From the NCBI GenBank assembly GCA_964392625.1, contig CAYMQG010000104.1, positions 1 through 61,333 on the forward strand: a stretch of DNA of 61,333 nt, written 5' to 3'. The notes beneath the pieces are model-generated. The model saw only the letters and a list, made by a program, of their open reading frames with translations. It had not been told where the DNA came from and did not search any database. This DNA is from an uncultured Gammaproteobacteria bacterium (lineage in GTDB: Bacteria > Pseudomonadota > Gammaproteobacteria > Steroidobacterales > Foliamicaceae). The position numbers and the translations under genes are program-made. Positions 1 through 54,704 of the stretch are shown here, piece after piece. Position 1 is the stretch's first letter; each line of letters starts with the position of its first letter.

Positions 1-210
1 GAGCCCGTGACCACCACCCGTCCGGCTTCGGTCTCCCGCGCCGCCTGCAGCACGTTGCGGGTGCCCACCACGTTGCACTCGTATATGTCGCGTCGATGCG
101 CGAGAGTGCCGTCGATGGTGAATGCATTCGCGGCGACGTGATAGACGCCTTCGCAACCCTCGATCGCGCGGCGGCGGAAGGACAGGATGTCATCGTCGCA
201 ACCTGCTGCG
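1..210 (-). pseudogene. Inverted or displaced internal fragment of an NAD(P)-dependent epimerase / 3beta-hydroxysteroid-dehydrogenase-family gene (about residues 45-115 of the Rossmann half). It runs off the window edge.
   Basis: The minus-strand translation reads ...DDDILSFRRRAIEGCEGVYHVAANAFTIDGTLAHRRDIYECNVVGTRNVLQAARETEAGRVVVTGS. These are the G-x-D-x-V-x-H-x-AA and NV-x-GT-x-N-x-L-x-AA...VV-x-T-S/G-S blocks of extended SDRs. Further upstream on the minus strand (beyond ~215) the frame reads HRPAEARREKVRAAHN, with no GxxGxxG N-terminus. Confidence 0.5.
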
Positions 211-800
211 CGGTTGTGGGCGGCGCGGACTTTTTCCCGTCGCGCCTCGGCCGGACGATGTGCGACTACACCGACGGCAAGCTCCATGCCTACGTGGACG
301 GCGGGTTCGAGTTCGTGGCGGCGCGCGACATCGTCGAAGGGCACCTGCTGTGCATGCGCCACGGGCGCTCCGGAGAAAAATACATCTTCAGCAGCGAATA
401 CAAGACCATCTCCGACATGCTCGATCTCTACGAGGAGGTCACCGGGATTCCGCGGCCGCACCGGCGGATTCCGGCCAACCTGATGTACGTCTTTTCGGAG
501 GCGGCCAGCTTCTACCTGAGCCGGGTACACCCCGACTTTCCCCAGCGTTTCACGCCCGGCGCCATCCGCCTGCTGAAAAAGCGCCGCCACGCCAATCTCG
601 ACAAAGCGAAAAGCGAACTCGGCTACCGGCCGACCCGCATCCGCGACGCCGTGCATGAGGCGTACGCGTTTCACTTTCACGAGCGCAAGGCGATCACCAA
701 TCCGCAGGCAAAACGCCCGCGCGCGAACGGCGCTGCATACGAGGAAGACGCCGCGCCGAACCGCAGTGCGCAGATGACCGCCGATGGAGGCGCGTCATGA
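205..800 (+). CDS. C-terminal ~195 aa of an NAD(P)-dependent epimerase / 3beta-HSD-family protein. By context it is SdmB/ERG26-like (sterol C-4 demethylation). The 5' half is not contiguous.
   Basis: In the frame of ORF 96..800, from ~205 the protein reads VVGGADFFPSRLGRTMCDYTDGKLHAYVDGGFEFVAARDIVEGHLLCMRHGRSGEKYIF...NLDKAKSELGYRP. This is the substrate-binding half of extended SDRs. No GxxGxxG or YxxxK lies upstream in this frame. The stop TGA at 798-800 overlaps the next ATG (ATGA). Confidence 0.6.
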
Positions 801-1927
801 GCACGGCGACGGCCGGACCGCCCGGCTTCGAGGAGGCCGTCAACCTGCGCCAGAAGGTGCGCGCCGCGGGCATGGACCCGGACTACTGGTACGCGGTCGA
901 GGAAGTGCGCAATATCAAGCCGGGATCCGTGGTCGAGGTGGTTTTCTGGAAGCGTTCGATCGCGCTGTTCCGGGCCGAGGACGGTTCGTTTCATGCCATG
1001 GACAACCGCTGCGCGCATCGCCAGCTCAAGCTTTCGCTTGGCCAGGTGGAGGGTTGCCGACTCGTGTGCGCCTACCACGGCTGGAAATACGACCCGGACG
1101 GGCAGCTTGCCGAGACCGCTCACGAGATGCTTGGGGGAAGCATGCCGAATGTCGCGCTCAGGACCTATCCGGTGAAGGTCCGCTACGGCCTGATCTGGCT
1201 GTTTCCCGGGAACCCGGAACTGGCCGACACGCGCCGCATTCCCGACATTCCCGAGTTGGAGGGCAAGGGCCGCTGGGCCTGCGTGCCGTTGAGCTTCACC
1301 TGGTCGGCGCACCACTCGATGGTGATCGACAACGTCAGCGATTTCACCCACGCCTGGCTGCACCGCCGCTACCGCCCGTTCGACGGCGCCGTGCTCACGC
1401 GCTGCGAAACGGTCGGCGACGACGTGCACGTGGCCTACGACACCAGCGTCGGACGCGGGCGTTTTTCCGGAATGTTCGTCGATCGTGAACGGATCGATAC
1501 CGATTCCATGAAGCTCTGCTATCAGTATCCCTATCAGTGGTCGAACACCGACGAGGCGATAAAACACTGGTGTTTCGTGCTGCCAGTCGACGAGCGCACC
1601 ACCCGGGCCTTCTTCCTGTTCTACTTCAAGTCCCTGAAGGTTCCGCTGCTGCCGATACGCTTCCCCCGGCTTGCAATGACCACGGTATTGAAGATATCCA
1701 ACCGTGTGCTGATCGGGCCGCTGCTTTCCCAGGATGGATTTGCGCTCGAAGCCGAACAGGAGGGTTACGAGCGGCACTGGGACGCGCGTCCGCTGGAATT
1801 CAATCCGGCGGTGCGGGCTTTTCAGAATGTCACGGTGCGCAAGTGGCAGGAGTACCTGGCCAGGGAGAACGGAACGGCAATGCCCGCGCCCGGATTGACG
1901 ACCGCGGACGGCGGCGCCGATGCCTGA
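797..1927 (+). CDS. Rieske [2Fe-2S] non-haem-iron oxygenase. By context it is SdmA-like (bacterial-type sterol C-4 methyl oxidase).
   Basis: Rieske motif CAHRQLKLSLG...CAYHGWKYD and an iron-site-like stretch IDNVSDFTHAWLH. ATG 797 overlaps the upstream stop. The gene sits between the SDR gene and the sterol reductase gene. Confidence 0.7.
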   Translation: MSTATAGPPGFEEAVNLRQKVRAAGMDPDYWYAVEEVRNIKPGSVVEVVFWKRSIALFRAEDGSFHAMDNRCAHRQLKLSLGQVEGCRLVCAYHGWKYDPDGQLAETAHEMLGGSMPNVALRTYPVKVRYGLIWLFPGNPELADTRRIPDIPELEGKGRWACVPLSFTWSAHHSMVIDNVSDFTHAWLHRRYRPFDGAVLTRCETVGDDVHVAYDTSVGRGRFSGMFVDRERIDTDSMKLCYQYPYQWSNTDEAIKHWCFVLPVDERTTRAFFLFYFKSLKVPLLPIRFPRLAMTTVLKISNRVLIGPLLSQDGFALEAEQEGYERHWDARPLEFNPAVRAFQNVTVRKWQEYLARENGTAMPAPGLTTADGGADA

Positions 1928-3017
1928 ACTGCCGTTGACCGCGTTTACGCTTGCGGGCGGCCCGCTACTGGAGGCCGCGGCAATGATCGCCGTGTTCATC
2001 GGCGCCCTGTTCCTCGGTTCGATGTTCCTGCCGGGACGCCGGATCAAGGGGCCGGACGTCGGCGGAAAGTCGACCACGTACAAGCTGAACGGTCTGGCGC
2101 TGTTGCTGCTCACCGCGCTTGCCGCCGGCGTTGCGCAAGTTTCGGGCGCGTTCTCCCTGTCGTCGCTTTACACGCACTTTTTCGCCCTCTTTGTGGCCGC
2201 GAACGTGTTCGCGTTCGCATTTTCCGGCTGGTTGTACTGGCGAGGCGCCCGCAAGAGCGCCGGATCGCCTGGATTCCTGCAGGGTTTCTTCTTCGGTGCG
2301 GAACTCAATCCGGCCCTGCTCGGGGTGGACCTCAAGATGTTCAGTTATCGGCCGTCCCTGATCGGGCTGGCGCTGTTCAACACGTCGTTCGCGGTGGTGC
2401 AATACGAGACCTACGGCCATCTGACCCTCGCGATGGGGCTGTACCAGGTCCTGACATGGGTCTATGTGCTCAATTACTTCCAGTTCGAAGGCGGCATGGT
2501 CCACACCTGGGACATCATCAGCGAGCGCTTCGGATGGATGCTGGTTTGGGGCGACTACGTGCTGGTGCCGTTTTTCTACTGCATCGTCGGCTGGTGGCTG
2601 GTTGACGCGTCGGGTCCTCCGCTGAGCCCTCTCGCCGCCGCCGCCATCCTGCTGCTCTATGCCTTCGGCTTCTGGATGTTCCGGGGCGCCAACGCGCAGA
2701 AGCACCGTTTCAAGCGCGATCCGTCCGCCACGATCTGGGGCCGGCCCGCCGAGTCCCTGGACGGGCGCCTGCTCGTGTCCGGATTCTGGGGCATCGGACG
2801 GCATCTCAACTACAGCGGCGAGATCTGCATCTACCTCGCGTTCGCGCTCACGACCGGTTTCGCGTCCTGGGCGCCGTTTCTGTTGCCGGCGTGGCTTGCG
2901 GGGCTGCTGTGGCACCGTTCGCGCCGCGATGACCGGCGCTGCCGCGCCAAGTACGGCGAACTGTGGGGGCGCTACAAGGAGAGGGTGCCGTATTCGATGG
3001 TCCCTTTCGTGTATTGA
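1920..3017 (+). CDS. Sterol reductase of the ERG4/ERG24 family (probable delta14-sterol reductase)
   Basis: Polytopic membrane protein ending ...GIGRHLNYSGEICIYLAFAL...WHRSRRDDRRCRAKYGELWGRYKERVPYSMVPFVY, the C-terminal ERG4/ERG24 signature. ATG 1920 overlaps the upstream stop (1925-1927). It lies immediately upstream of CYP51. Confidence 0.8.
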   Translation: MPELPLTAFTLAGGPLLEAAAMIAVFIGALFLGSMFLPGRRIKGPDVGGKSTTYKLNGLALLLLTALAAGVAQVSGAFSLSSLYTHFFALFVAANVFAFAFSGWLYWRGARKSAGSPGFLQGFFFGAELNPALLGVDLKMFSYRPSLIGLALFNTSFAVVQYETYGHLTLAMGLYQVLTWVYVLNYFQFEGGMVHTWDIISERFGWMLVWGDYVLVPFFYCIVGWWLVDASGPPLSPLAAAAILLLYAFGFWMFRGANAQKHRFKRDPSATIWGRPAESLDGRLLVSGFWGIGRHLNYSGEICIYLAFALTTGFASWAPFLLPAWLAGLLWHRSRRDDRRCRAKYGELWGRYKERVPYSMVPFVY

Positions 3018-3027
3018 GGAAGTAAGG

Positions 3028-4437
3028 GTGGCAAACCATACCGACAGTGCGGCCACCCTGCGTTCGGCGCGGCCCGCGGCGTCGCCGGGCCAGCCGATTC
3101 CCGAACTTTCCGGCGGTTGGCCGCTGCTGGGCCATCTGCCGGAGTTCCAGAAAGACCCGGTTGCGATGCTCGGCCGCTGCTGGCGCGAGCATGGCGAACT
3201 GGTCCGTTTCCGGCTGGGGACCCGCGAATTCGTGCTGTTTACCGGACCGGAAGCCCACGACTGCTACTTCCGGGCGCCCGAGGACCAGCTTGACGCCCGT
3301 GCCGTGTACCAGTTCACGGTGCCCATATTCGGGCGCGGCGTGGCCTACGACGTGGCCCCCGAGATCATGGCGGAGCAGTTGGGATTTCTGTATCCGGCGC
3401 TGCGCGATGCGTCCATGCGCAGGTACGCGCAAATCATGTACGAGGAAGCCGCCCGGTTTGCCGACGAGCTCGGAGAGGAAGGAACGCTCGACCTGCCGGC
3501 GGCGATGAACCGGCTTACGGTGAACATCGCCAGTCGCTGCCTGCTGGGTCAGGAGGTGCGGGATCAGGTGGATTCGGGGTTCGCCCAGGCGTACCACGAC
3601 CTCGAGGAGGGCATAAACCTGATCGGCTTCTTCCTGCCCAGGCTGCCGATCCCGGCGCATCGGCGTCGCGACCGCGCGCGCCGCAGGATAGCCGGGATTC
3701 TTGTCCGAATCATGGAAGGCCGGCGCGGTTCGGGGGCCGCGCCGGAAGATTTCATGCAGGCGCTGATGCAGGCCCGCTACAAGGACGGCCGGGCCCTGAG
3801 CGACGGCGAGGTGACCGGGATATTGCTGACGGTCCTGTTCGCCGGCCAGCACACCAGCGCGGTGCTCGCAAGCTGGATGGGTCTGGAGATGTTCCGCGAT
3901 CCCGCCTGCGTGGCGCGGATACGCGCCGAGATGCGCGAGGTCTACGGCGAGACGGGCGCAGTTAGCCTGGCCAGTCTCAAGCGCCAGATGGCGCTGGAAA
4001 GGACGGTGCGCGAATGCGAGCGGCTGCATCCGCCGCTCATACTGCTCATTCGCAAGGTGCTGAAACCGCTTCAATATGCGGGTTACACCGTGCCTGCCGG
4101 GGCCCTGGCCGTGGTGTCTCCGGCCGTCTCGCACCGCTTGCCTCACCTGTTCGCCCAACCGCAGCGATTCGATCCCGAGCGGTTTGCACCGCCGCGCAGC
4201 GAGAACAAGCAGCACCTCTACACGCTGATCGGATTCGGCGGGGGCAAGCACCGTTGCATGGGGGAGAAATTCGCCATGCTGCAACTGAAGGCGATCTGGA
4301 CGGTGTTGCTCGATCGCTTCGATTTCGATCCCGTTACGGAGTTTCCCGCGCCGAACTACGGCAGCTGGGTGACAGGTCCCACGGCGCCGTGCCGGGTCCG
4401 CTACCGCCGCCGCCCGCAAGCGGGCTTATTCAGTTGA
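3028..4437 (+). CDS. cyp51: Cytochrome P450 sterol 14alpha-demethylase (CYP51), stand-alone haem domain
   Basis: CYP51 B'-helix signature YQFTVPIFGRGVAYD, I-helix AGQHTS, and haem-Cys loop FGGGKHRCMGEKFA. I placed the start at GTG 3028, 10 nt after the upstream stop and preceded by GGAAG. The 2659-3027 part of the listed ORF overlaps the reductase gene. Confidence 0.85.
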   Translation: MANHTDSAATLRSARPAASPGQPIPELSGGWPLLGHLPEFQKDPVAMLGRCWREHGELVRFRLGTREFVLFTGPEAHDCYFRAPEDQLDARAVYQFTVPIFGRGVAYDVAPEIMAEQLGFLYPALRDASMRRYAQIMYEEAARFADELGEEGTLDLPAAMNRLTVNIASRCLLGQEVRDQVDSGFAQAYHDLEEGINLIGFFLPRLPIPAHRRRDRARRRIAGILVRIMEGRRGSGAAPEDFMQALMQARYKDGRALSDGEVTGILLTVLFAGQHTSAVLASWMGLEMFRDPACVARIRAEMREVYGETGAVSLASLKRQMALERTVRECERLHPPLILLIRKVLKPLQYAGYTVPAGALAVVSPAVSHRLPHLFAQPQRFDPERFAPPRSENKQHLYTLIGFGGGKHRCMGEKFAMLQLKAIWTVLLDRFDFDPVTEFPAPNYGSWVTGPTAPCRVRYRRRPQAGLFS

Positions 4438-7400
4438 GCGCCGCCCCTCCGCGTTACGACGTAATCATCGTTGGTGCGGGGCCTGTAGGCAGCTATTGCG
4501 CCCTCGCCCACGCCCGCAAGGGCGCGCGCGTGGCGCTGCTCGAGGCGAACCCCAGGGCGGCCACGCGGCTGGCCGGCGAGTGGCTGCATCCGCTGGCCGT
4601 GCGCATGTTGCGCGATGCCGGCATTCGTCTCGATCCGCCGCTGCGCAGCACCGAGGGCCAGGGCTTCGTGGTGTTTCCGGAGGACGGTTCGGAGCCGATC
4701 GTGCTCCCGTACCCCGGCGGCGGACGGGGGATCGCCTGCGACCATGAGATTCTCGTGGCGCGTCTGCATGAAGCCGTCCGCAAAGAGCCGGGCATCGACT
4801 TTCTTGTCAATGCGCGGGTAAGGCAGGTCGAAGACGATGGCGTGGTCTTTATCCGCGGCGGCTCCAGCGAACGTCTCGCCGCGGACAGAATTGTCGGTGC
4901 CGACGGCCGGTCCTCGGCCGTGCGACGGTCTTTGGGTCTGCCGATGCGCCGCAAGGCCTGCTCGCGGATGGTGGGCGTGACCCTTGAAGGCGTGAGCCTG
5001 CGGCCGGCCGGTTACGGAAACGTAATACTTGGCGGCCCGGGTCCGATTCTCGGATATCCGCTGGGCGAGCACTGCGTGAGGATCGTTGTCGATGTGCCGC
5101 TCGAGCAGTGGACCTCCAGCGACAGGACCGGCCTGCTGGCCGAGTCCTATGCTCGGGTCCTGCCGGAAGAATTGCGGCCCGCTTATCTCTCTGCGCTGAA
5201 GTCGGGCAAATTCCACGCGGCGGCCAATGAACTCAGGCCGCGCATCTCGTACGGCACGTCGAGGCGGGTGCTGATCGGCGATGCGGCCGGACACTACCAT
5301 CCGATGACGGCAGTGGGCATGACACTCGGTTTCGGCGACGCCGCCGCACTGGCGGAAGGCGGGAGCTTCAGGAATTTCGCCGCCAGGCGATTCGGGGCGA
5401 CCCACGCCCCGGAGTTGCTTGCCATGGGGCTTTACGAGGTCTTTGCCGATCATCGACTCGAAGCGGCGGCGCTCCGGCGCGCGATCTACCGAAACTGGCG
5501 GGCGCATGGCGTCGTTCGCGACCGGACCATGCGGCTGCTCGCCTGTGAAGAAACCTCGATGACCCACCTTGTGCTCGCAACGCTCGCTACGGTGATCCGG
5601 GCGATTGCTGGAGTGGTTCGTTCATCGTTCAGACAGTCGGCCTGGCGGCGCGCCCGCTACATCGTTTTCCCGATCGTTACCCGTGCCCGCTGGTTCATGC
5701 GTGGAATTCGCAAGCTGAAGGAGGCCAGGAACGGAGGCGGCGGTCAGGACCGGCAGGCCCGCAGGGCGTTGTCGCGCGCGCTTCTCGCTTCCATGTCCTC
5801 GAACAACGGCCGAGCCGGCGCCACGCGCACGGGCGAATCCGCGTCGCCCGATGCGCAACCGGCATTGCGCAGGGCTGCGGCGCGGCTGCTGGATCTCCAG
5901 GGGAAGGACGGCGCCTGGGAAGGCGAGATGGTCTGGTGCCCCATGCTCACCGCGCAGTACGTGTTGCTGCAGCACATTCTCGGTGAGCCGATGGACTCCG
6001 GCCGGCGGCGGCGCATCCTGCGCTCTTTCGAGTGCACCCGCCTGTCGGGCGGAGCGTGGGGAATGCATGAGCACTCGCCGCCCCACCTGTTCGTCACCGT
6101 GCTGGTTTATGTCGCCTCAAGACTGCTGGGCGTCGACCGTGAAGATCCGCTCATCGGACCGGCCCGCCGTTTCCTTGCCGAAGAGGACGTGCTCGCGATC
6201 CCCAGTTGGGGGAAATTCTGGCTGGCGCTGCTCAATCTGTATGACTGGCGAGGGGTTAACGCAATTCTTCCGGAACTGTGGGCTCTGCCGCGCGGGTTGC
6301 CGTTGCATCCGTCGAACTGGTACTGCCATACGCGGCTCATCTACATGGCGATGGCGTCCATCTACGCCCGCCGCTCCCACGCGCCGGTCACGCCCGTGAT
6401 CGAATTCCTGCGCGAGGAGTTGTTTGGCGACGAGTTTGACCGCCTCGATTTTTCCTCGGCCCGCAACCGCCTGCGCGATGCCGACCTGTTTGCCCGCCCA
6501 AGCCTGTGGCTGCGCGCCGGATACGGGCTGGCGCGCGTATATGAGCGCTTCCACGGCAAGCGCCTGCGCGCCCGCTGCCTTGAGAAGCTGATCCGGCAGA
6601 TCCAATGGGAGTTGCAGACCACCAGCCACACGAGCATCTCGCCGGTCAGCGGATTTCTTAACATCCTGGCCTTGTGGCTGCACGATCCGGACGATGCCGA
6701 CTGCCGCGCCGCACTCGACAAGCTTGACGGCTGGTTCTGGGAGGACGAGGAGCTCGGCGCGCGCGTCACCGGAGCGAGAAGCAGCACCTGGGATACCGCC
6801 TTCTCCGTGCAGGCGCTGGCGGCCGCGCCCGGGTCCGGTGCAATCGGAGACGCCGTCCGCAAGGGCGCCGGTTTCCTGCGCTCGCAGCAGATCCGCAACA
6901 GCTTCGAGGGGTTTCGCGAGGCCTACCGGTCCGACCCGAAGGGTGGCTGGTGCTTTCCCGGCGGCTGGCATGGCTGGCCGGTCAGCGACTGCACCGCCGA
7001 AGCCGTACTGGGGATTCTCGCCGCCGGCAGCGAAGCCGCCGACGAGGCGGCGCTGACCGAGGCGGTCCGGTTCATGCTGCGCAGCCAGAACCGCGACGGC
7101 GGTTTCGGCAGCTATGAAGCGCGGCGCACGAGGATCGGTCTGGAGTGGCTGAACCCCGCCGAGATGTTCGGCGAATCGATGACCGAGAATTCCTACGTCG
7201 AATGCACGGCGTCGTGCCTCGAGGCGCTGGCCGCTTGCCGACGCGGGTTCCCGCAGGTGCTGGGCCCGTCGGCGGTAGGTGCCATCTCCAAAGGCGCCGC
7301 CTGGCTGCGCAAGACCCAGGGGCGCGACGGCTCATGGCGCGGCGTATGGGGCGTTCAGTTCATCTACGGCACCCTGTTCGGCATAAGGGGGCTGGTTGCC

Positions 7401-7841
7401 GCCGGGGCCGGACCGAGCGATCCGGCGCTGCGCCTGGCCTGCCGCTGGCTGCTCGACCGGCAGCGCGAGGACGGAGGATGGGGCGAACACCATAGCGGCT
7501 GCCTGACGGGCCGCTACGTTCCGCATGAGGAAAGCCAGGTCATTCAGACCGCCTGGGCCCTGCTCGCGCTGCTGGAGGCGGAGGAGTCCAACTGGACCGC
7601 CATAGCGCGCGGCGCGCGGTTCCTGCTCAACTCCCAGGAGGCGGACGGCGGCTGGCCGAAACAGGACATGGCCGGCGTCTTCTTCCGCACGGCGCTGCTG
7701 GACTACGTCCTCTACCGGCAGTATTTCCCGCTGCGCGCGCTGGGCCTCTACGAGCAACGCCGCCGGACCCGGCTCGAACTGACCGCCGCTTCGAAGGAGA
7801 AGGAGCCGGACGTGGTCCGGACCAGGCCGCGAGCCGCCTGA
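4434..7841 (+). CDS. Fused squalene monooxygenase (ERG1-type, N-terminal ~400 aa) and oxidosqualene cyclase (C-terminal ~680 aa), 1135 codons
   Basis: One frame runs from TTG 4434 (TTGA overlap with the cyp51 stop) to TGA 7841 with no stop. The N-terminal part has DVIIVGAGPVGSYCALAHARKGARVALLE and LIGDAAGHYHPMTAVGMTLGFGDA. The C-terminal part has the OSC catalytic motif WPVSDCTAE and QW repeats (RSQNRDGGFGSYE, KTQGRDGSWRGVWG, DRQREDGGWGEH, NSQEADGGWP). Confidence 0.8.
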   Translation: MSAAPPRYDVIIVGAGPVGSYCALAHARKGARVALLEANPRAATRLAGEWLHPLAVRMLRDAGIRLDPPLRSTEGQGFVVFPEDGSEPIVLPYPGGGRGIACDHEILVARLHEAVRKEPGIDFLVNARVRQVEDDGVVFIRGGSSERLAADRIVGADGRSSAVRRSLGLPMRRKACSRMVGVTLEGVSLRPAGYGNVILGGPGPILGYPLGEHCVRIVVDVPLEQWTSSDRTGLLAESYARVLPEELRPAYLSALKSGKFHAAANELRPRISYGTSRRVLIGDAAGHYHPMTAVGMTLGFGDAAALAEGGSFRNFAARRFGATHAPELLAMGLYEVFADHRLEAAALRRAIYRNWRAHGVVRDRTMRLLACEETSMTHLVLATLATVIRAIAGVVRSSFRQSAWRRARYIVFPIVTRARWFMRGIRKLKEARNGGGGQDRQARRALSRALLASMSSNNGRAGATRTGESASPDAQPALRRAAARLLDLQGKDGAWEGEMVWCPMLTAQYVLLQHILGEPMDSGRRRRILRSFECTRLSGGAWGMHEHSPPHLFVTVLVYVASRLLGVDREDPLIGPARRFLAEEDVLAIPSWGKFWLALLNLYDWRGVNAILPELWALPRGLPLHPSNWYCHTRLIYMAMASIYARRSHAPVTPVIEFLREELFGDEFDRLDFSSARNRLRDADLFARPSLWLRAGYGLARVYERFHGKRLRARCLEKLIRQIQWELQTTSHTSISPVSGFLNILALWLHDPDDADCRAALDKLDGWFWEDEELGARVTGARSSTWDTAFSVQALAAAPGSGAIGDAVRKGAGFLRSQQIRNSFEGFREAYRSDPKGGWCFPGGWHGWPVSDCTAEAVLGILAAGSEAADEAALTEAVRFMLRSQNRDGGFGSYEARRTRIGLEWLNPAEMFGESMTENSYVECTASCLEALAACRRGFPQVLGPSAVGAISKGAAWLRKTQGRDGSWRGVWGVQFIYGTLFGIRGLVAAGAGPSDPALRLACRWLLDRQREDGGWGEHHSGCLTGRYVPHEESQVIQTAWALLALLEAEESNWTAIARGARFLLNSQEADGGWPKQDMAGVFFRTALLDYVLYRQYFPLRALGLYEQRRRTRLELTAASKEKEPDVVRTRPRAA

Positions 7842-7843
7842 CG

Positions 7844-8863
7844 TCAGTCTCGCCGGGACAGCGGTTTCCGGGCCAGGAAAAAGAACATCGGCGTGAAGAT
7901 CCCGGTGCGGCCGCCTTCAACGAGCGTGTCCGCCCCCCAGTTCAGGAACGAGCTGACCTCCCTGGCGCCTTGCGGAGCGAGCCGCAACCCCTCGGCAACC
8001 CACAGGATCAGATTGGTCAGGGCGCGGCCCAGGGGCGAGCGCGGGATACTCGCCAGACTGAAATCCCGGCCCTGCAGGGCCCGGTACCAAGGCGTTTCCG
8101 GATCCGATTCGGGCGCAAGGTCCCGGGCTTCAAGCAACTCGAATCCGGCCGCGCGCACTGCTTCGCACACCTCCGTAATGCTGGCGATGTCGGGTAGCCC
8201 CGATCCCGTCATGATTCCTTCCTTGACTCGCATGTGTTCCGTGTTCGAAGGATCGAATACGTCGGTGAGACACCAGTCGTAGCACGCGAAACCGGCCCCG
8301 GGACGCAAAACACGGAAGATTTCGCTGTAGGCGGCGGTCTTGTCCGGCGCGTGGGGCATCGCTTCGATGCTGATGGCGCCATCGTAGTGGTCGTCGCTCC
8401 GGGGAATCTTCATGTAGTCGCTCTTGATGAAACGGCACAGCGCCTCGACGTCCCGGGTGTGCACTTTCGCGCGCTCGATCTGGTAGGCGTTGTTGTTGAC
8501 GCCGACAAAACTCGCGCCGCAATAGCGGGCAAGATTGCCCGCGGGGCCGCCCACACCGCATCCCGCGTCGAGAATCTGCATTCCCGGTCTCAGCGACAGC
8601 TTGTCGGCCAGGAAATGCTGGTGCCGGATCTGCGATGCCTTGAAACTCTCGCCCCGCCGCCGCGGAGCAAAGTGGAAGCTGGTACCCCAACCCCACTCGT
8701 AGAAATCGGTTACGAGGTCGTAGTAATGATTGACGAGCTGCCGGTAATGCTCCTTCTTGCTTTCAATACCGGCATCGTGGAGCCCGACGTAGTCATCGAC
8801 CACCGACTTCACTTCCTCCTGGGTCAGATTACCCAGGGAACGATTGGCTACTTTCGTATCCAC
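7844..8863 (-). CDS. Sterol 24-C-methyltransferase (ERG6/SMT family)
   Basis: Carries YYDLVTDFYEWGWGTSFHF (SMT region I), the SAM motif ILDAGCGVGGPAGNLA, and IEAMPHAPDKTAAYSEIFRVLRPGAGFACYDW. GTG start at 8863 with a GGAGG 7 nt upstream. Its stop lies 2 nt from the cyclase stop. Confidence 0.85.
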   Translation of the reverse strand: MDTKVANRSLGNLTQEEVKSVVDDYVGLHDAGIESKKEHYRQLVNHYYDLVTDFYEWGWGTSFHFAPRRRGESFKASQIRHQHFLADKLSLRPGMQILDAGCGVGGPAGNLARYCGASFVGVNNNAYQIERAKVHTRDVEALCRFIKSDYMKIPRSDDHYDGAISIEAMPHAPDKTAAYSEIFRVLRPGAGFACYDWCLTDVFDPSNTEHMRVKEGIMTGSGLPDIASITEVCEAVRAAGFELLEARDLAPESDPETPWYRALQGRDFSLASIPRSPLGRALTNLILWVAEGLRLAPQGAREVSSFLNWGADTLVEGGRTGIFTPMFFFLARKPLSRRD

Positions 8864-8984
8864 CCCCGCGCCTCCGGATGTGCCGGCAGGAAACCAGCGC
8901 GATTGTATCCTGCCTGCGCTCGTTGCATCGCATGGCGCGCGTTAGAATGCGCCCGCCGCCACAGTGGACGTAGCGAGGGGGCAC

Positions 8985-9719
8985 ATGTCCGAAAGCCGCG
9001 CCAGTCTGCCGCCATCCGAACCAGGCCGGGGAAGCAGAGGCCCGACGGTTCCGGTGGCGCTGGTCGTCGCTCTGACGATCGCCGCCGGCACGCTTCTCGG
9101 TATCCTGGTGCGCCTGCAGACCGGCGGGCAACTGAATTTCCTCCACTCCCTGTTCTGCCTGTTCTTTTCGGTCAATCTACTGATCTGCTACTGGGAGATC
9201 TGCCTGTTCTTCCTTCGCGACCGGATCGGGACGCGAGCCGAGTACTGGCGCGAATTGCAGGGCAGGACGGGAAGGTCGCCCGCCCACGGTTTCTTTGCCA
9301 CGAGGATCGGGCTGACGCAGGTCCTGTCGCCGTCCGTGTGGGCCGATGCCTGGGCGGCCTACTGTTATTACGACGACTCGTATGCGGACCGCCGCACCTT
9401 CGGCTTCAACGTGGACATCGCCAACGGTTTCGTGACGCCCGTTCCGACACTGGTCCTGTATGCCGCATTCACGGTGGGCTACCCGTCCGCTCGCATCGCC
9501 GGGATTATCGGGCTGATGATGTCCTGGCAGTGGGTTTACATGACATCGACCTACCTGGTCAGCTTTTTCGTTGCGCGGCGTCAAACCCTGCTGAGCCGGC
9601 GCGACGTGTACATCTACATCGTGGCGATCAATTCCTTCTGGATTCTGTGCGCGCTGCTGGGCGGGTACGTTTCCGTCGCCCTCATCGTCAACGGCGACTA
9701 CCGCGTGCTGGGTTTGTAA
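8985..9719 (+). CDS. EXPERA-domain / emopamil-binding-protein (EBP)-like polytopic membrane protein; candidate sterol delta8-delta7 isomerase
   Basis: About 5 hydrophobic helices. WAAYCYYDDSY matches the EBP pattern W-x2-Y-x3-D-x2-Y (human WKEYAKGDSRY). There is a Glu in TM2 (CYWEICLFF, compare VIEGWF). ATG 8985 is preceded by GAGGGGG. An alternative GTG start exists at 8964. Confidence 0.5.
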   Translation: MSESRASLPPSEPGRGSRGPTVPVALVVALTIAAGTLLGILVRLQTGGQLNFLHSLFCLFFSVNLLICYWEICLFFLRDRIGTRAEYWRELQGRTGRSPAHGFFATRIGLTQVLSPSVWADAWAAYCYYDDSYADRRTFGFNVDIANGFVTPVPTLVLYAAFTVGYPSARIAGIIGLMMSWQWVYMTSTYLVSFFVARRQTLLSRRDVYIYIVAINSFWILCALLGGYVSVALIVNGDYRVLGL

Positions 9720-9758
9720 TATCGGGGTTTTCCGACAGCAAACGATCAAGGAATCCGA

Positions 9759-10358
9759 ATGACCGCACAACGAATCGCGGAAATACAAAAGCAGATTTTT
9801 GAACTGACCGGGGAACTCGGGACGCTCCTGAAGCAAAGCCGCGGCGCCGAGGTGCCCGACTACCGCTTCGCCGGCGGGTCGGGCGAGGTGAGCCTGCTTG
9901 AACTCTTCGCCGGCAGGGACACGCTGCTGGCGATTCACAACATGGGCCAGGGGTGTCGTTACTGCACCGTCTGGGCCGATGGCTTCAACGGCTTTCTTCC
10001 GCACCTGGAAAACGCGATGTCGGTAGTGCTGCTGTCGAAGGACCCGCCGGAACTGCAGCGGCGGTTCGCCAACGAGCGCGGCTGGCGCTTCCGGCTCGCC
10101 TCGCACGGCGGCGGCGCCTATATCCGCGAGCAGACGGTCGTGGAAGGCCAGGACAATTACCCGGGCGCCGTCGTTTACAAGCGCGAAGGGGACAAGGTTC
10201 TTCGCTTCAACGCCTGCGTTTTCGGACCCGGCGACCTCTACTGCTCGCTCTGGAGCCTCCTCGCGCTGGCCGGCATGGGCGCGCAGGACTGGACCCCGCA
10301 GTATTCCTACTGGCGGCGCCCGGAAGTGCTCGACGATGGCGGAGAAAACGTCTACTAA
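9759..10358 (+). CDS. DUF899-type thioredoxin-fold protein
   Basis: Reads LLAIHNMGQGCRYCTVWADGFNGFLPHLEN, the C-x-x-C-containing core typical of DUF899 proteins. An AAGGAA RBS precedes ATG 9759. Confidence 0.55.
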   Translation: MTAQRIAEIQKQIFELTGELGTLLKQSRGAEVPDYRFAGGSGEVSLLELFAGRDTLLAIHNMGQGCRYCTVWADGFNGFLPHLENAMSVVLLSKDPPELQRRFANERGWRFRLASHGGGAYIREQTVVEGQDNYPGAVVYKREGDKVLRFNACVFGPGDLYCSLWSLLALAGMGAQDWTPQYSYWRRPEVLDDGGENVY

Positions 10359-10441: not shown

Positions 10442-10678
10442 ATGGGCACGCTAACGATTCGCAACCTGGACGATGGAGTAATTGAGAAATTGAAGGCGCA
10501 GGCGAAGGCCAATCACCGCTCCCTCGAAGGAGAAATCCGCCATGCATTGACACAACGCGCGGACCCTCTCGGGCGCATCGCGGAGTTTCGCGATCGCACG
10601 CGTAATCTTCAGGCGCTTACCGCGGATCGCAAACAGACCGACAGTGTCGAACTGCTTCGCGAGGATCGGGAGCGTTGA
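10442..10678 (+). CDS. vapB: Ribbon-helix-helix antitoxin (VapB/FitA-like)
   Basis: 78 aa, MGTLTIRNLDDGVIEKLKAQAKANHRSLEGEIRHAL, an Arc/MetJ-type RHH N-terminus. GGAGA RBS. The stop overlaps the PIN gene start (TTGA). Confidence 0.8.
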   Translation: MGTLTIRNLDDGVIEKLKAQAKANHRSLEGEIRHALTQRADPLGRIAEFRDRTRNLQALTADRKQTDSVELLREDRER

Positions 10679-11133
10679 GAGTCACCATCGATGCTAGCAT
10701 TGTCGTCAAGTGGTTTGTCGTGGAATCTTTTTCTCAAGAATCACGGCTGCTGCTGGCGCGGGACTTGGAACTTCAAGCTCCGGATCTATTGATACCGGAA
10801 TTCGCCAATACGATCTGGAAGAAAGCCAGACGGCGTGAAATCGCTGACCCGGAGCCGTTCCTCAATGAATTGCACAGCCTGTCCGAACTGATTGAGTTGT
10901 ATCCTGCTGAAGCGCTCATCGAACGGGCATCGCAACTGGCCTTCGAAATCGACCATCCCGTTTACGACTGCCTCTATCTTGCGTGCGCCGAAGTCTCCGG
11001 CACACCTTTGGTAACGGCCGACAAGCGCTTGGTGGCCAGGGCAGATGAGAGTCAATCAGGCCTTGAGGTTCGCAACATTGGCGTCCCCGCCACTGCACGC
11101 TGGATCAAGGACGCGCGTGCTGCGTCAGGCTAG
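10675..11133 (+). CDS. vapC: PIN-domain toxin (VapC family)
   Basis: 152 aa with VTIDASIVVKW..., ...HPVYDCLYLACAE..., PLVTADKRL, giving the acidic PIN residues. It is translationally coupled to the antitoxin. The GC content is visibly lower than in the flanking DNA. Confidence 0.8.
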   Translation: MRVTIDASIVVKWFVVESFSQESRLLLARDLELQAPDLLIPEFANTIWKKARRREIADPEPFLNELHSLSELIELYPAEALIERASQLAFEIDHPVYDCLYLACAEVSGTPLVTADKRLVARADESQSGLEVRNIGVPATARWIKDARAASG

Positions 11134-11150: not shown

Positions 11151-11891
11151 CTACATGTTTAGCTGCTTTCCGGTCGTGTAGCCGCCATCCACGTAAATGT
11201 TCTGACCGGTGATGTAGCTCGCCGCGTCCGAGCACAGGAAAGCAACCGTGTCGGCAATTTCATCCGGAGTCCCGGCGCGCTTCATCGGATGCGCCTTCAG
11301 CGACGCATCCAGCTGCTTTTCCTTGCCTGGCGCGTTCAGGTGCGAGGACATCGGGGTGGTCACCAGACCCGGGCAAACGCAATTCGCCCGAATATTGTCG
11401 CTTGCGTAATCGATGGCGATGCACCTGGTCAGGTGCGCTACTCCGGCCTTGCTCGCCGCATAGGCGCTCATTCTTTCGGGCGCCAGGCGTCCATACACGC
11501 TGCCGATGGTGACTATGGTCCCGCCCCCTTGTTTCTGCATGTGAGGAATGACGGCGCGAGCCACAAGGAAGGCCGACGTCAGGTTGACCTCCAGGACGTT
11601 GGACCAGCTCTGCGAATCCAGTTCCGTCACGGTGCCGTATTGACCGATGCCGGCGCAGTGAACGAGCGCGTCCAGCCCTCTTGAGGGGACGCCAAGGCCC
11701 TGCACGGCCTTTTGTGTCACTTCCTCGTTGCTTACGTCCGCCTGTTCGAAGCGGTCGAAGACCGATGGATCGGGACTTGCATTGACGTCCATGCCCAGCA
11801 CGGCGTATCCATCGCGATGGAACCTCCGCGCGCAGGCCAGGCCTATTCCCGACGCAGCGCCGGTGACCAGTACGCGCTTTCGCCTACTCAT
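11151..11891 (-). CDS. Short-chain dehydrogenase/reductase (FabG-like)
   Basis: Carries [13 protein letters not shown] (TGxxxGxG) and [13 protein letters not shown] (YxxxK). Confidence 0.8.
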
Positions 11892-11913
11892 GGACTGCGC
11901 ATGTCAGGTCGCT

Positions 11914-12753
11914 TCAGACGCCGTAGAAGCGGGCGGCGGTGCCGCCCAGCACCTGGGTCCGGTCCGCTAAGTCCAGACTGTCCAGGAAGCGTTCGGCGAT
12001 CGCGTTCCAGCCCGGGTAGGTGCCGGCCAGCAGAAGCACCGGCCAGTCGCTGCCCCACATAAGCCGCTCCGGCCCGAACGTGGCGAGCAGGTGTTCCATG
12101 TAGGGGAGCAGGTCGTCGTAGCCCTGGTCCGGGCTGGCTTCGGTCAGGAGGCCGGAGAGCTTGCAGTTGACGCCGGGGCGCTCGGCCAACTTGGACATTC
12201 CATCCGCCCACGGCTGCCACAGCCCCTTGCTGATGACCGGCTTTGCCCCGTGGTCGATTACCGTCTTCAGGTCCGGATGGCGCTCGAGGAATTCGAGCAG
12301 GTAGGGCAGGTGCTGGGGTCGGACCAGCGCGTCGAAGCACAGGCCGGCGTCGATCACCACCTCGGTCGCCGCCGCCAGCCCGGGCCGTGTGATCCACGCT
12401 TCGTCCTCGATGTTGTGAATCATCGGCCGGATCCCGACCAGCTTCGGGTGTTGCGCGAGATCGGCCAGCACCGTCGCCGCGTCAGGAGTTTCCATGTCGA
12501 TCCAGCCGACGACGCCGGCAACCAGGTCGGTCTGGCCGGCCAGTTCCAGAAGGAAGCGCGTCTCCGCGACTGTCGGAGCGGCCTGTACCAGGATGGTCCT
12601 GTCTATTCCTGCGTCCTGCAGCAGCGGGGCGAGGTCGTCGGGCCCGTAGTCCCGGTAGAGGGGCTTGAGCGCCGGCGTCAGCCAGCCGTAGTCGTTGCGT
12701 TCGACCTTCCAGAAGTGCTGGTGGGCGTCGATTCGAAGCGGAGGAGCGTTCAT
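11914..12753 (-). CDS. Amidohydrolase-2 family metal-dependent hydrolase (lactonase/decarboxylase type)
   Basis: Reads MNAPPLRIDAHQHFWKVERNDYGWL, the N-terminal H-x-H of the amidohydrolase_2 family. An alternative GTG start exists at 12792. Confidence 0.65.
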   Translation of the reverse strand: MNAPPLRIDAHQHFWKVERNDYGWLTPALKPLYRDYGPDDLAPLLQDAGIDRTILVQAAPTVAETRFLLELAGQTDLVAGVVGWIDMETPDAATVLADLAQHPKLVGIRPMIHNIEDEAWITRPGLAAATEVVIDAGLCFDALVRPQHLPYLLEFLERHPDLKTVIDHGAKPVISKGLWQPWADGMSKLAERPGVNCKLSGLLTEASPDQGYDDLLPYMEHLLATFGPERLMWGSDWPVLLLAGTYPGWNAIAERFLDSLDLADRTQVLGGTAARFYGV

Positions 12754-12834
12754 GTCTCGGGTGCTCAGAGGGTTCTGGCGCAATTTTCGCACGCCGAAAC
12801 CCGGCGTGCGAACGCCGTTTAGACTTGGAAAGCG

Positions 12835-14082
12835 ATGAAAATCTCAACGGTCAGGCAGCTGTTCGGCAACCGGAACTTCGCCCTGTTCTCGGTGGGCAAC
12901 GTGCTGTCGCTGACCGGTAACTGGATTCAGCTCGTGGCCGTGTCCTGGCTGATCTGGGAACTCACCAATTCCACGGTCTGGCTGGGAATCGTGGCGGCGT
13001 CTCAATTTGTGCCGATTTTCCTGGTCAGTCCGGTGGGGGGCGTGCTGGCGGACCGCATGGACCGTCGCCGGCTCATTCTCTTCAGCAACGGCGGCGGCCT
13101 TCTGTGCGCGCTCGCCCTGTTCGCCATCTACAGCACCGGCCATCTCAACGTTGTCATCATCTGCGTAATCCGGGCGCTGCAGGCAACGTTTCAGTCGCTC
13201 GGGCAACCGGCGAGACTGGCCGTGGTGCCCAGGCTGGTGCCGTCGGAGCAGCAGACCGCGGCCATAGCCATGGGCAACATCAGCCTGCACGTGGCGCGTC
13301 TGCTCGGTCCCATCCTTTCGGGAGTGGTCGTTGCATTCAGCGGGATCGGTCTGGCGATGCTTTTGAACGCCCTGAGCTTTGTGGTCTTTATTTCCTGCGT
13401 TGTGGCGATTCGACTGCCGGACGTGGCGCGCAAGGCCTCCCGTCGTTCCGGGCGGAGGGCCGGGGCCTTTAGTGAAGCAATCGAAGGGGTTACCTATCTC
13501 GGCCGCAACAAGACCATTCTCATGACGGTCGTCCTTGCTGCGGTAATGGTCCTGTTCGCCCGCCCGATCATGTTCATGCTGCCTGCCTATGTGGACACCG
13601 TGTTTGCCCAGGGCATGTCAGGGCTGTCGATCCTGATCTCGATGAGCGCCGCGGGCAGCATTCTGGGTGGCCTGTCCATGGCGCGGACGCGACATTCCGG
13701 CGGTCTCGTGAAGGTCGTATTGCTGAGCAGTCTCGCCATCGCCGCGGCCGCGACCGCGTTTGCCCTCGTGCGCGAATACTGGGTGGCCGGCGCCTTCCTG
13801 GTCATGCTCGGCTTCATGAACGTGGTCTTCAGCGTGTCTTCGCAATCGCTGGTGCAGCACGCGGTCGATGAAGACACCCGCGGCAGGGTAATGAGTTCGT
13901 GGTTCATGCTGAACCGGGGCGGCCCCGCCCTGGGCACATTTTTCTTCGGCATCGTGGCCGAACTCATCGGTCTTTCCTGGCCGATCATCCTGGGATCCGG
14001 CGTCATTGTCATGACCGTGCTGCTCTGTCTGCTCTACCGGAAGCGAACCCTGGAGAAGGCGAACATTCGACCGGCGACCTAA
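12835..14082 (+). CDS. MFS transporter (EntS/MFS_3-like)
   Basis: About 12 hydrophobic segments. The N-terminus NRNFALFSVGNVLSLTGNWIQLVAVSWL...GGVLADRMDRRRL is typical of this MFS subfamily. Confidence 0.75.
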   Translation: MKISTVRQLFGNRNFALFSVGNVLSLTGNWIQLVAVSWLIWELTNSTVWLGIVAASQFVPIFLVSPVGGVLADRMDRRRLILFSNGGGLLCALALFAIYSTGHLNVVIICVIRALQATFQSLGQPARLAVVPRLVPSEQQTAAIAMGNISLHVARLLGPILSGVVVAFSGIGLAMLLNALSFVVFISCVVAIRLPDVARKASRRSGRRAGAFSEAIEGVTYLGRNKTILMTVVLAAVMVLFARPIMFMLPAYVDTVFAQGMSGLSILISMSAAGSILGGLSMARTRHSGGLVKVVLLSSLAIAAAATAFALVREYWVAGAFLVMLGFMNVVFSVSSQSLVQHAVDEDTRGRVMSSWFMLNRGGPALGTFFFGIVAELIGLSWPIILGSGVIVMTVLLCLLYRKRTLEKANIRPAT

Positions 14083-15230: not shown

Positions 15231-16367
15231 CTAATCGTCGCGGGGGAAAGTCGTAGGCACAACCGGGTGGACCCAGTTCTTCGGGTCCTTGCGGCGGGCC
15301 GGCGAGGGGATGGAAAAATGCCGGTAGCGCCCTTCGTGCTCCAGTTTTTCGACATCGATTTCCCAGCCCTGCTTCACTTTCTCGAACAGCACTTTCCGGA
15401 ACGCCGTTTCGAGCTGGTCGGATTCGACCAGCAGCTGGTGCGCCATGGAACGCGGCACGAATTTCGGCTCCACCGAGGCGACCGCCTCATAGTCTTCGCG
15501 GAAGGCCAGCCGGATGCCGTCGAGACGCGCCTCGTCGTGCTCTTCTTCCATCAGGTAGTTGCGCGCCTGGTGCATGAAGATCCGGGTGTTGTAGGGATCG
15601 ATGGGGGTTCGGGCGGACACGGTTACCTGCCGGACATTGCCCTCGCGAGTAATGTCAATCCGGTGCGAAATGCCCGCCAGGTAGGAGTCGGTGGATGCAA
15701 CAGTCTTGCCCCTTTTCCTGGATACCAGCTTGGCGATGTCGGCACTGACCTGTGTGTGCTTGGGCGGAACCCGTTCACGCGTGGCGTTATGGCCCCCGAA
15801 GGCGTTCGCGACCAGCGGAACGATCTGCACTTTCGGCGCGCTGCGCCGGCCGAACCGGGAATGCACGAAGGCCGGGTGCGCGCTGTCGAGCGAGTTCTCG
15901 TGACCGCGGGCCCAGTTCACGTCGGCGTCGAACTCGATCGAGACTACCCGCCAGTTTTCCTTGTCTTGGTATTCGGGGAAATCGGTTGCCGGGATCGCGG
16001 GACGCTCCTCCTCCTCCAGGTCGCCCAGGAAAACCCAGACCCAGTCGAAATGCTCTTCGACGGGATACGAGTCCACCCGCGCGCGCCTGGGGATGTTGGT
16101 ATCTTTTCCAAGCGCGGGAATCTCGACGCACTGGCCCTGCGCATTGAATTTCCAGCCGTGGTAGCCGCAGGCAATACATCCGGCGCCGTCCAGTTCACCC
16201 CGGCCAATGGAACCGCCGCGATGGCAGCAGGTGTTGGTCAGACAGACGGCCTTGTCTTCCGGAGTTCGGAAGAGCACGAAATTCTGGCCTAACATACGCA
16301 CGATCAATGGCTTCTCGGCATTCACCTCCTGGCTTTTTGCCGCCACGTACCAGTTGTTCATCAACAT
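15231..16367 (-). CDS. Rieske non-haem-iron oxygenase, VanA/phthalate-family alpha subunit-like (paralog of 33527..34669)
   Basis: N-terminus MLMNNWYVAAKSQEV, Rieske motif CCHRGGSIG...CGYHGWKF, and iron site ENSLDSAHPAFVH. An alternative upstream ATG exists at 16391. Confidence 0.8.
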   Translation of the reverse strand: MLMNNWYVAAKSQEVNAEKPLIVRMLGQNFVLFRTPEDKAVCLTNTCCHRGGSIGRGELDGAGCIACGYHGWKFNAQGQCVEIPALGKDTNIPRRARVDSYPVEEHFDWVWVFLGDLEEEERPAIPATDFPEYQDKENWRVVSIEFDADVNWARGHENSLDSAHPAFVHSRFGRRSAPKVQIVPLVANAFGGHNATRERVPPKHTQVSADIAKLVSRKRGKTVASTDSYLAGISHRIDITREGNVRQVTVSARTPIDPYNTRIFMHQARNYLMEEEHDEARLDGIRLAFREDYEAVASVEPKFVPRSMAHQLLVESDQLETAFRKVLFEKVKQGWEIDVEKLEHEGRYRHFSIPSPARRKDPKNWVHPVVPTTFPRDD

Positions 16368-16462
16368 GCTCGTCCCCCATTTGTCCGACATACAACCATT
16401 CGGTTCGACGGTCGGGCGCGGATGTGATCGTTCATTTTAGCTTTCCCCGCTGAACCCGAAAG

Positions 16463-49449: not shown

Positions 49450-49505
49450 TATTTTACAAATAATTATCATTCAAATAATTTGCTATTCTAACTATTGTGT
49501 ATTAT
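49450..49505. promoter_or_regulatory. AT-rich divergent promoter region between the sulfatase and TBDR genes, containing the direct repeat CAAATAATT-N6-CAAATAATT (49457-49480)
   Basis: A sharp GC drop in otherwise GC-rich DNA. The 9-nt repeat is perfect. The resemblance to a Fur box is weak (about 11/19 in the best register). Confidence 0.4.
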
Positions 49506-54528: not shown

Positions 54529-54704
54529 CTCGAAAGCTCCTGGATCATGCAAGGCCGTGGTGAAGCGTAATCTTTTTTTCGTCGCTCCGGCAGCGCCTGC
54601 GCCGTATGCGATAATGATTTCGGAAACAATAATTGTATTGAAGAATGATTGAAAATACCAACCACTTGGCGTAATCTCGCTGGCCGGCAACAGCAATCCA
54701 GAGC

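Follow-up and report, generated by a model that had tools for sequence, protein, structure and literature searches.

Gene Content and Organization of the Cluster

The contig CAYMQG010000104.1 from an uncultured gammaproteobacterium was analyzed over its complete length of 61,333 bp (the window), and positions 1-9719 were found to hold a compact cluster of genes predicted to function in sterol biosynthesis. In order, these encode an SdmB-like short-chain dehydrogenase/reductase (SDR), an SdmA-like Rieske oxygenase, an ERG24-type reductase, a CYP51, a fusion of a squalene epoxidase and an oxidosqualene cyclase (OSC), a convergently oriented sterol methyltransferase (SMT), and a 244-amino acid (aa) membrane protein. 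A preliminary description of this DNA counted eight adjacent genes here; the adjacency stands, but the region consists of seven open reading frames (ORFs), and one of these is a fusion of two enzymes. The features are as follows:

1-174, minus strand: inverted fragment of an sdmB-like SDR gene, corresponding to residues ~59-117 of the intact protein and beginning at the first base of the contig
165-800, plus strand: SdmB-like NAD(P)-dependent SDR, C-terminal 211 aa, 3-beta-hydroxysteroid dehydrogenase (3-beta-HSD)/epimerase family; colinear with positions 5732-6367 of the related locus L001
797-1927, plus strand: SdmA-like Rieske non-haem-iron oxygenase, candidate 4-methylsterol monooxygenase (Pfam Rieske and VanA_C)
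1920-3017, plus strand: predicted sterol delta14-reductase of the ERG24/TM7SF2 type (Pfam ERG4_ERG24, E 1e-72)
3028-4437, plus strand: predicted CYP51 sterol 14-alpha-demethylase, 469 aa, GTG start, no fused ferredoxin (Pfam p450)
4434-7841, plus strand: predicted squalene epoxidase/OSC fusion, 1135 aa in one ORF (Pfam SE, FAD_binding_3, and SQHop_cyclase_N/C)
7844-8863, minus strand: predicted sterol C-24 methyltransferase of the ERG6/SMT type, convergent with the operon (Pfam Sterol_MT_C, E 2e-22, and S-adenosylmethionine (SAM) methyltransferase domains)
8985-9719, plus strand: five-helix membrane protein of 244 aa, putative remote member of the EXPERA/EBP superfamily and candidate sterol double-bond isomerase

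The plus-strand genes from the SDR to the fusion are tightly packed. Stop and start codons are shared as ATGA at 797 and TTGA at 4434, genes overlap by 8 nt at 1920-1927 (ATG at 1920, TGA at 1925-1927), and a 10-nt gap containing GGAAG (3018-3027) precedes the GTG start at 3028. The stop codons of the cyclase (7841) and the SMT (7844) converge with 2 nt between them.

Within the fusion protein, a flavin adenine dinucleotide (FAD)-dependent squalene epoxidase (residues ~1-394) is joined by a linker to an OSC (residues ~475-1110). The epoxidase half contains the FAD-binding GxGxxG motif and matches human SQLE (6c6n, E 3e-25). The cyclase half conserves the catalytic DCTAE motif (residue 852) and QW repeats and is closer to human lanosterol synthase (LSS; 1w6k, E 8e-130) than to squalene-hopene cyclase (E 1.5e-50), features that identify it as a predicted sterol-forming OSC; its score against TIGR03463 is 741 bits, under the 851-bit cutoff of that model. 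More than 120 clusters of full-length fused homologs (~1130 aa) were found, with 67-90% identity.

Motifs and nearest relatives likewise identify the predicted product of 3028-4437 as a CYP51. Its top solved relatives are all CYP51 enzymes, the first being that of Methylococcus capsulatus (6mi0, E 7e-112), and it carries the I-helix GQHTS, haem-binding FGGGKHRCMG, and B'-loop YxFxxPIFGxGVxYD signatures. The ERG24-type reductase matches the Methylomicrobium delta14-sterol reductase (PDB 4quv, E 1e-64), and the Rieske oxygenase contains both the CxH-x16-CxxH cluster motif and a DxxxDxxHxxxH iron site. The convergent gene encodes a predicted SMT on the strength of its SAM core (LDAGCGVG), the Sterol_MT_C domain, and a Region I that reads YEWGWG and lacks the Phe linked to propylation. 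Look-ups of the exact SMT and ERG24 product sequences returned no match, probably due to differing start-codon calls.

Pfam and PDB matches together with these motifs bear out the gene content and order given for positions 1-9719 in the preliminary description, including its ERG4/ERG24-type reductase, its CYP51, its ERG1-type epoxidase fused to an OSC, and its ERG6-type C-24 methyltransferase. The four junctions it listed as evidence of translational coupling are exact, and its view that the genes form a bacterial operon instead of eukaryotic contamination is correct, because the genes overlap, introns are absent, and both the locus and the DNA flanking it show synteny with gammaproteobacterial metagenome-assembled genomes (MAGs). 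Two of its assignments hold in part. The proposed SdmB/SdmA pair is adjacent, overlapping, and assigned to these families by best match, but the SDR is not intact, and neither the oxygenase nor the intact L001 ortholog of the SDR reaches the 600-bit cutoff of its family. The label EBP/EXPERA-like for the last protein is upheld by profile, fold, and residue comparisons but not by the Pfam EBP model, which gave no match at E<=1. The SE, SQHop_cyclase, p450, ERG4_ERG24, Sterol_MT_C, and Rieske models all matched their respective products.

Distribution and Relation to Published Sterol Gene Clusters

Scanning a single genome for each GTDB species identified 438 that encode a relative, and gene order and neighbors were counted in the best 80 loci from these 438 genomes. 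All 80 carry the fusion (64-92% identity). Their taxonomic labels include Gammaproteobacteria, Alphaproteobacteria, Nitrospirales, Binatia, Acidimicrobiia, Bryobacterales, Vicinamibacterales, Thermodesulfobacteriota, Opitutales, Longimicrobiales, and Nitrospinaceae, among others. The order SDR-Rieske-ERG24-CYP51-fusion is kept in ~65 of the 80 loci at 65-97% amino acid identity (tblastn); ~60 have an SMT next to it, and ~30 the 244-aa gene. The closest relative is a syntenic locus in the gammaproteobacterial MAG SB0673_bin_2, with 91% nucleotide identity, and window positions 165-9719 are colinear with positions 5732-15265 of L001, in the closest relative, at 91% identity (blastn). Many of the 80 loci belong to MAGs whose names presumably denote sponge projects; among the nearest relatives, which have syntenic flanks, SB0673_bin_2 and CO36388bin_2 are such names. 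We take the SB-series to be MAGs from Ircinia ramosa, among the public MAGs used by Kelly et al.

Additional genes recur near the operon at some of the 80 loci and are absent from the window. A 674-aa fusion of GPP34 (Golgi phosphoprotein 3, a lipid-binding domain) and a cytochrome P450 adjoins the operon in 22 loci, usually a few kb from the cyclase gene (L032 3196-5220 and 21 others). An amine-oxidase/HpnE-like flavoprotein occurs in 16 loci (L019 3569-4951), an MMPL/RND transporter with a sterol-sensing domain in 14 (L012 14858-17152), and a LolA-like protein in eight (L073 13524-14384). Shadow ORFs, which are common in DNA of high G+C content, contaminated the all-against-all clustering of ORFs from the 80 loci, so only long recurrent families were used.

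Clusters of this type have been described before. "Clusters of steroid genes" (CSGs) have been reported from Ircinia sponges, where they occur in 115 of 537 MAGs, in 10 phyla, and show evidence of purifying selection and horizontal transfer (Kelly et al., 2022, Microbiome, PMC9531527). At their core lies an ERG24-CYP51-LSS operon of 5910 +/- 74 bp, flanked on the same strand at its 5' side by a "dihydroflavonol reductase" ("DFR") along with a hypothetical protein, and on the opposite strand at its 3' side by an SMT or FDFT1 (PMC9531527). The window core (1920-7841) spans 5922 bp and has these genes in the same order on a single strand; both the 5' flank (SDR fragment at 165-800, Rieske oxygenase at 797-1927) and the opposite-strand SMT match the published flanks, except that the SDR is incomplete. 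The published "DFR" corresponds to the SDR and the published hypothetical protein to the Rieske oxygenase. The CSG study did not recognize these two as SdmB/SdmA and did not describe the epoxidase fusion or the 244-aa protein; the ERG2 that it reports in some clusters belongs to a family other than that of the 244-aa protein (PMC9531527).

A second precedent comes from metagenome scaffolds of the sponges Aplysina and Petrosia, for which "fused SMO/OSC homologs" are mentioned in the methods (Brown et al., 2023, Nat Commun, PMC10070321). The Aplysina aerophoba scaffold JGIcombinedJ30088_10000835 encodes sdmB, sdmA, ERG24, ERG11, a single ERG1+ERG7 gene, and SMTs, and assays in vitro showed that SMTs from such clusters yield 24-methyl, 24-ethyl, and also 24-isopropyl sterols (Brown et al., 2023, PMC10070321). 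That scaffold carries two SMTs, one of them propylating, and lists no EBP-like gene, whereas the window has one SMT, with Region I YEWGWG.

Methylococcus capsulatus has the SdmA/SdmB C-4 demethylation route that is predicted for the window, and among solved structures its CYP51 comes closest to the one described here, but its epoxidase and cyclase are separate genes, its CYP51 is fused to a ferredoxin, and it lacks an SMT. Where the window has ERG24, M. capsulatus uses an NTF2-type 8,14-reductase (8,14-Bsr, PMC13277303); the NTF2 fold of that methanotroph enzyme rules it out as an identity for the ERG24-type gene. Multi-step sterol synthesis is also known from a 21-kb cluster in Calothrix sp. 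NIES-4105 and a cholesterol pathway in Enhygromyxa salina (Lee et al., 2023, PMC10202945). As is predicted for the window, these include SdmAB-type C-4 demethylation, C-14 demethylation, and a homolog for C-8 isomerization; unlike the window, they lack an epoxidase-cyclase fusion, and they are not associated with sponges. Ordinary searches recognize their C-8 isomerase homologs, which share 35-51% identity with each other or with reference isomerases; this is not so for the 244-aa family.

From this comparison, the region is very probably a copy of a horizontally spread, CSG-type sterol operon of sponge-associated bacteria, hosted by an uncultured gammaproteobacterium near SB0673_bin_2. The preliminary description had considered the locus exceptional among bacteria. 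That view does not survive the two sponge studies, the multi-step clusters of Calothrix and Enhygromyxa, and the 438 species genomes with relatives: the cluster type is already published and widespread, and the window adds one instance from an already sampled lineage. The only modestly new point of the locus is the family of the 244-aa protein.

A Candidate EXPERA/EBP-Like Membrane Protein

The most likely start of the last ORF is the ATG at 8985, which is preferred because the homologs are all 244 aa in length. The protein has no Pfam match even at E<=1 and no NCBIfam match. Its 434 relatives are all annotated as hypothetical and lack Pfam domains, and an exhaustive hidden Markov model search recovered 331 representative clusters at 50% identity. 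We found no paper describing the family, and nothing relevant came up when full texts were searched for EXPERA in combination with bacteria and sterol.

Structure prediction nevertheless points to a known fold. An AlphaFold2 model (predicted local distance difference test score 86, predicted template modeling (TM) score 0.83) contains five long helices and a helical insert, and its top Foldseek match in the PDB is human EBP (8w0r, 6oht; probability 1.0, TM 0.51-0.60), with no other PDB fold above TM 0.4. A profile built from close homologs alone (A2) found no PDB relative, and its hhalign comparison with EBP was non-significant (0.6%); the link emerged only when the profile was widened by distant members (A3). 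With 59 diverse members, the sole PDB match at E<=10 is EBP (E 0.077), and hhalign gives 53% against human EBP and 80% against 29 vertebrate EBPs (E 1.4e-5, 110 columns). Pfam EBP/EXPERA is also the only family to recur among the members, with weak matches in 9 of the 59 (best E 0.0029).

The family shows complete or almost complete conservation of N64, E71, W119, W123, Y126, D130, Y133, D144, N147, G148, Y185, Y190, N216, and W219. Alanine scanning of EBP identified H76, E80, W101, Y104, D108, R110, Y111, E122, T125, N193, and W196 as determinants of function, and D108 is the most conserved EXPERA position (PMC4263179). Seven of these 11 determinants, including D108, are matched by (near-)invariant residues of the 244-aa family: W123, Y126, D130, Y133, D144, N216, and W219 align with EBP W101, Y104, D108, Y111, E122, N193, and W196, respectively. 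E71 may match EBP E80, though solely in a non-significant stretch of the alignment. The bacterial protein and human EBP (PDB 6OHT, 8W0R) have a five-helix membrane fold in common, with the glutamate at EBP position 122 replaced by aspartate; human EBP acts in a sterol pathway, and the 244-aa gene sits beside a predicted one.

Genomic context provides a further line of evidence. In each of two unrelated, distant relatives from other bacteria, with 28-29% identity, the gene lies directly 3' of two KshA-like Rieske oxygenases, placed between these and 3-beta-HSD, P450, or SnoaL genes; one of these loci adjoins a P450 and a 3-beta-HSD, the other an MFS transporter and a SnoaL protein. The neighborhoods of two other distant relatives are uninformative. 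The KshA-type context is a second, different steroid-type arrangement and independently supports the EXPERA link. Overall, the label EBP/EXPERA-like has moderate support as a statement of remote homology, short of proof, and the predicted isomerase function is plausible. We tentatively propose, with somewhat less than even confidence, that the protein belongs to an unrecognized bacterial branch of the EXPERA/EBP superfamily and acts as a sterol or steroid double-bond isomerase.

Tandem KshA-like oxygenases followed by a relative of the 244-aa gene are located at L083 3953-8062, L086 5934-9207, and L087 1137-3926, with the P450 and 3-beta-HSD in L083.

Contig Start and Flanking DNA

As assembled, the SDR gene is rearranged at the start of the contig. 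The intact gene of L001 encodes 370 aa with a Pfam Epimerase/3Beta_HSD match. Residues 160-370 are correctly oriented in the window, whereas residues ~59-117 are inverted at positions 1-174, where the minus-strand translation reads RRAIEGCEGVYHVAAN...NVVGTRNVLQAARE...VVVTG. This segment is the reverse complement of L001 5431-5604 (blastn), which lies ~128 nt upstream of the colinear part within the same SDR gene; the ~128 nt in between, which hold the catalytic YxxxK segment, are missing from the window. The geometry of the start is compatible with an inversion of ~290 bp (L001 ~5441-5731) with breakpoints in GC-rich CGCGCG microhomology. A simple hairpin or foldback was rejected as the cause, as nothing in the window pairs with the inverted segment. 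The rearrangement is probably an assembly artefact, which is judged likelier because the anomaly occupies the terminal 174 nt of the contig. The break in sdmB leaves the C-4 demethylation pair incomplete in this assembly.

Downstream of the cluster, flanks at 9736-10352, 11918-12741, and 11164-14000 are colinear with the Gammaproteobacteria MAG loci L001, L002, and L040 (blastn); the contig is therefore bacterial and not chimeric over the cluster boundary. The G+C content is even across the window at 60-68%; gene calling on third-position G+C alone was rejected as too noisy, and a three-position filter was used instead. Scans of the window for promoters and terminators gave chance-level results only, no tRNA genes were found in the window, and no integrase or transposase was seen adjoining the cluster.

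The remainder of the contig encodes two TonB-dependent receptors, transporters of the ABC and TRAP types, MFS pumps, and catabolic oxygenases, along with a sulfatase, an arylsulfotransferase, and a FitA/PIN toxin-antitoxin pair. Further features are as follows:

10448-11133: FitA-like ribbon-helix-helix antitoxin and PIN-domain toxin, a short way downstream of the sterol cluster
15231-16391 and 33527-34669, both minus strand: two extra Rieske and VanA_C oxygenases of broad SdmA type, amid catabolic genes
48019-49470 and 53122-54717, both minus strand: sulfatase and arylsulfotransferase, on the same contig as many transporters

The toxin-antitoxin pair is found at the corresponding position of L002 but not of L001. 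In L001 and L002, the closest relatives, ~1 kb separates the 244-aa gene from a DUF899 gene (L001 15266-16301), a stretch that is missing from the window (9720-9735); in L001 it includes a 280-aa ORF on the minus strand (15571-16413) with no Pfam match. The sulfatase, arylsulfotransferase, and transporters would fit a lifestyle of living on sulfated host-derived compounds.

Alternative Interpretations

Several observations weigh against reading the region as a functional sterol operon that ends in an isomerase gene. The top NCBIfam match of the Rieske oxygenase is SdmA (405 bits, E 2e-121), yet this is under the 600-bit equivalog cutoff, as is the 297-bit top match of the L001 SDR ortholog to SdmB, and the sdmB of the window lacks its N-terminus and residues ~117-159, which include the YxxxK catalytic motif. 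The product-specificity triad of the cyclase (human LSS positions 381/449/453) is A/H/V, which is neither the lanosterol nor the cycloartenol pattern; these residues are located at fusion positions 781, 846, and 850 (window 6974-6985 and 7011-7031), and because the triad is mixed the product (lanosterol, cycloartenol, or parkeol type) is not callable. Squalene synthase, HpnCDE, a ferredoxin, and a reductase partner were all not found in the 61-kb window, so squalene must be supplied, and electrons delivered to CYP51, SdmA, and the epoxidase, by proteins encoded elsewhere. For this cluster type, the activity demonstrated so far is that of the SMTs alone, in vitro. Finally, the link of the 244-aa protein to EBP is remote (~15% identity, TM ~0.5-0.6, hhalign 80%), the two N-terminal transmembrane helices of EBP have no significant alignment, the family does not conserve H76, the proton donor of EBP, and R110 and T125 are likewise unmatched.

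The rearranged contig start could mean that the cluster is decaying, with a genuine ~290-bp inversion inactivating sdmB and leaving 4,4-dimethyl or 4-methyl sterols, or nothing useful, as the product. Inversion geometry, the microhomology at the breakpoints, and the lack of the inverted repeat expected from self-foldback favor this explanation, but the anomaly falls where assembly artefacts concentrate, the remaining genes show no damage, are closely coupled, and share 88-97% identity with those of relatives having an intact sdmB, and the genes of published clusters are under purifying selection (PMC9531527). We therefore consider decay unlikely. It is also quite improbable that the enzymes chiefly remodel sterols of a sponge host by demethylation, side-chain methylation, and double-bond shifts instead of synthesizing sterols from squalene. 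Bacterial methylation of host-acquired sterols has been discussed (Brown et al., 2023, PMC10070321), some related loci carry transport genes of the RND/sterol-sensing and LolA-like kinds, and the absence of squalene synthase and HpnCDE from the window would suit such a role; however, a conserved epoxidase-cyclase fusion with an intact DCTAE motif is useful only for de novo synthesis, and the squalene synthase gene FDFT1 is enriched in, and sometimes adjacent to, sponge-MAG clusters (PMC9531527). Eukaryotic contamination or a chimeric contig, which the classically eukaryotic families and the rearranged first 174 nt might suggest, is so improbable as to be negligible given the overlapping start and stop codons, GTG/TTG starts, intron-free genes, and uniform G+C content, the TonB receptors, transporters, and toxin-antitoxin pair on the same contig, and the colinearity of cluster and flanks with several independent gammaproteobacterial MAGs. 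The 244-aa protein could be a sterol-binding, sterol-sensing, or accessory membrane protein, as proposed for other EXPERA members such as TMEM97, or a scaffold for the pathway enzymes, and not an isomerase. The unconserved H76, the confinement of significant alignment to the C-terminal half, the absence of the gene beside the cluster in ~50 of the 80 loci, and the unrelated neighborhoods of some relatives are consistent with this role, whereas the seven matched EBP determinants and the recurrence of the gene beside steroid-active enzymes in two unrelated architectures argue for catalysis. A non-catalytic role is a real possibility, though less likely than not.

Proposed Pathway and Implications

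The analysis establishes the family assignments, motifs, operon structure, synteny, and distribution; from family membership we infer all catalytic steps, their order, and the product. The fusion would epoxidize squalene and cyclize 2,3-oxidosqualene to a protosterol, plausibly passing the epoxide straight between its two active sites. CYP51 would then take off the 14-alpha-methyl group to give a delta8,14-diene, and the ERG24-type enzyme would reduce the delta14 bond, as in the canonical route. SdmA (Rieske) and SdmB (SDR) would remove the C-4 methyl group or groups by the bacterial route, and the convergent SMT would methylate C-24 of the side chain. In a final step, the EXPERA-like protein would most likely move the nuclear double bond from delta8 to delta7 in the manner of EBP, with its conserved acidic and aromatic residues protonating the sterol and stabilizing the carbocation. 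The steps beyond cyclization that the preliminary description predicted, including the possible delta8-delta7 isomerization, fit the families found.

24-Alkylated steranes are fossil markers for early eukaryotes and sponges. Bacterial clusters of the type described here bear on the reading of these markers, a point that others have raised before and in part tested.

The EXPERA superfamily has so far been regarded as eukaryotic, and EBP has been inferred to have arisen within eukaryotes (Hoshino and Gaucher, 2021). If the 244-aa protein is a nuclear double-bond isomerase, it would fill the missing step of the predicted bacterial pathway, and bacteria could produce delta7 (or otherwise rearranged) 24-alkyl sterols. 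A medically important superfamily (EBP, TMEM97, TM6SF2) would then extend into bacteria, and EBP-type isomerases would not be purely eukaryotic, with consequences for the question of whether the late steps of sterol modification originated in eukaryotes alone.

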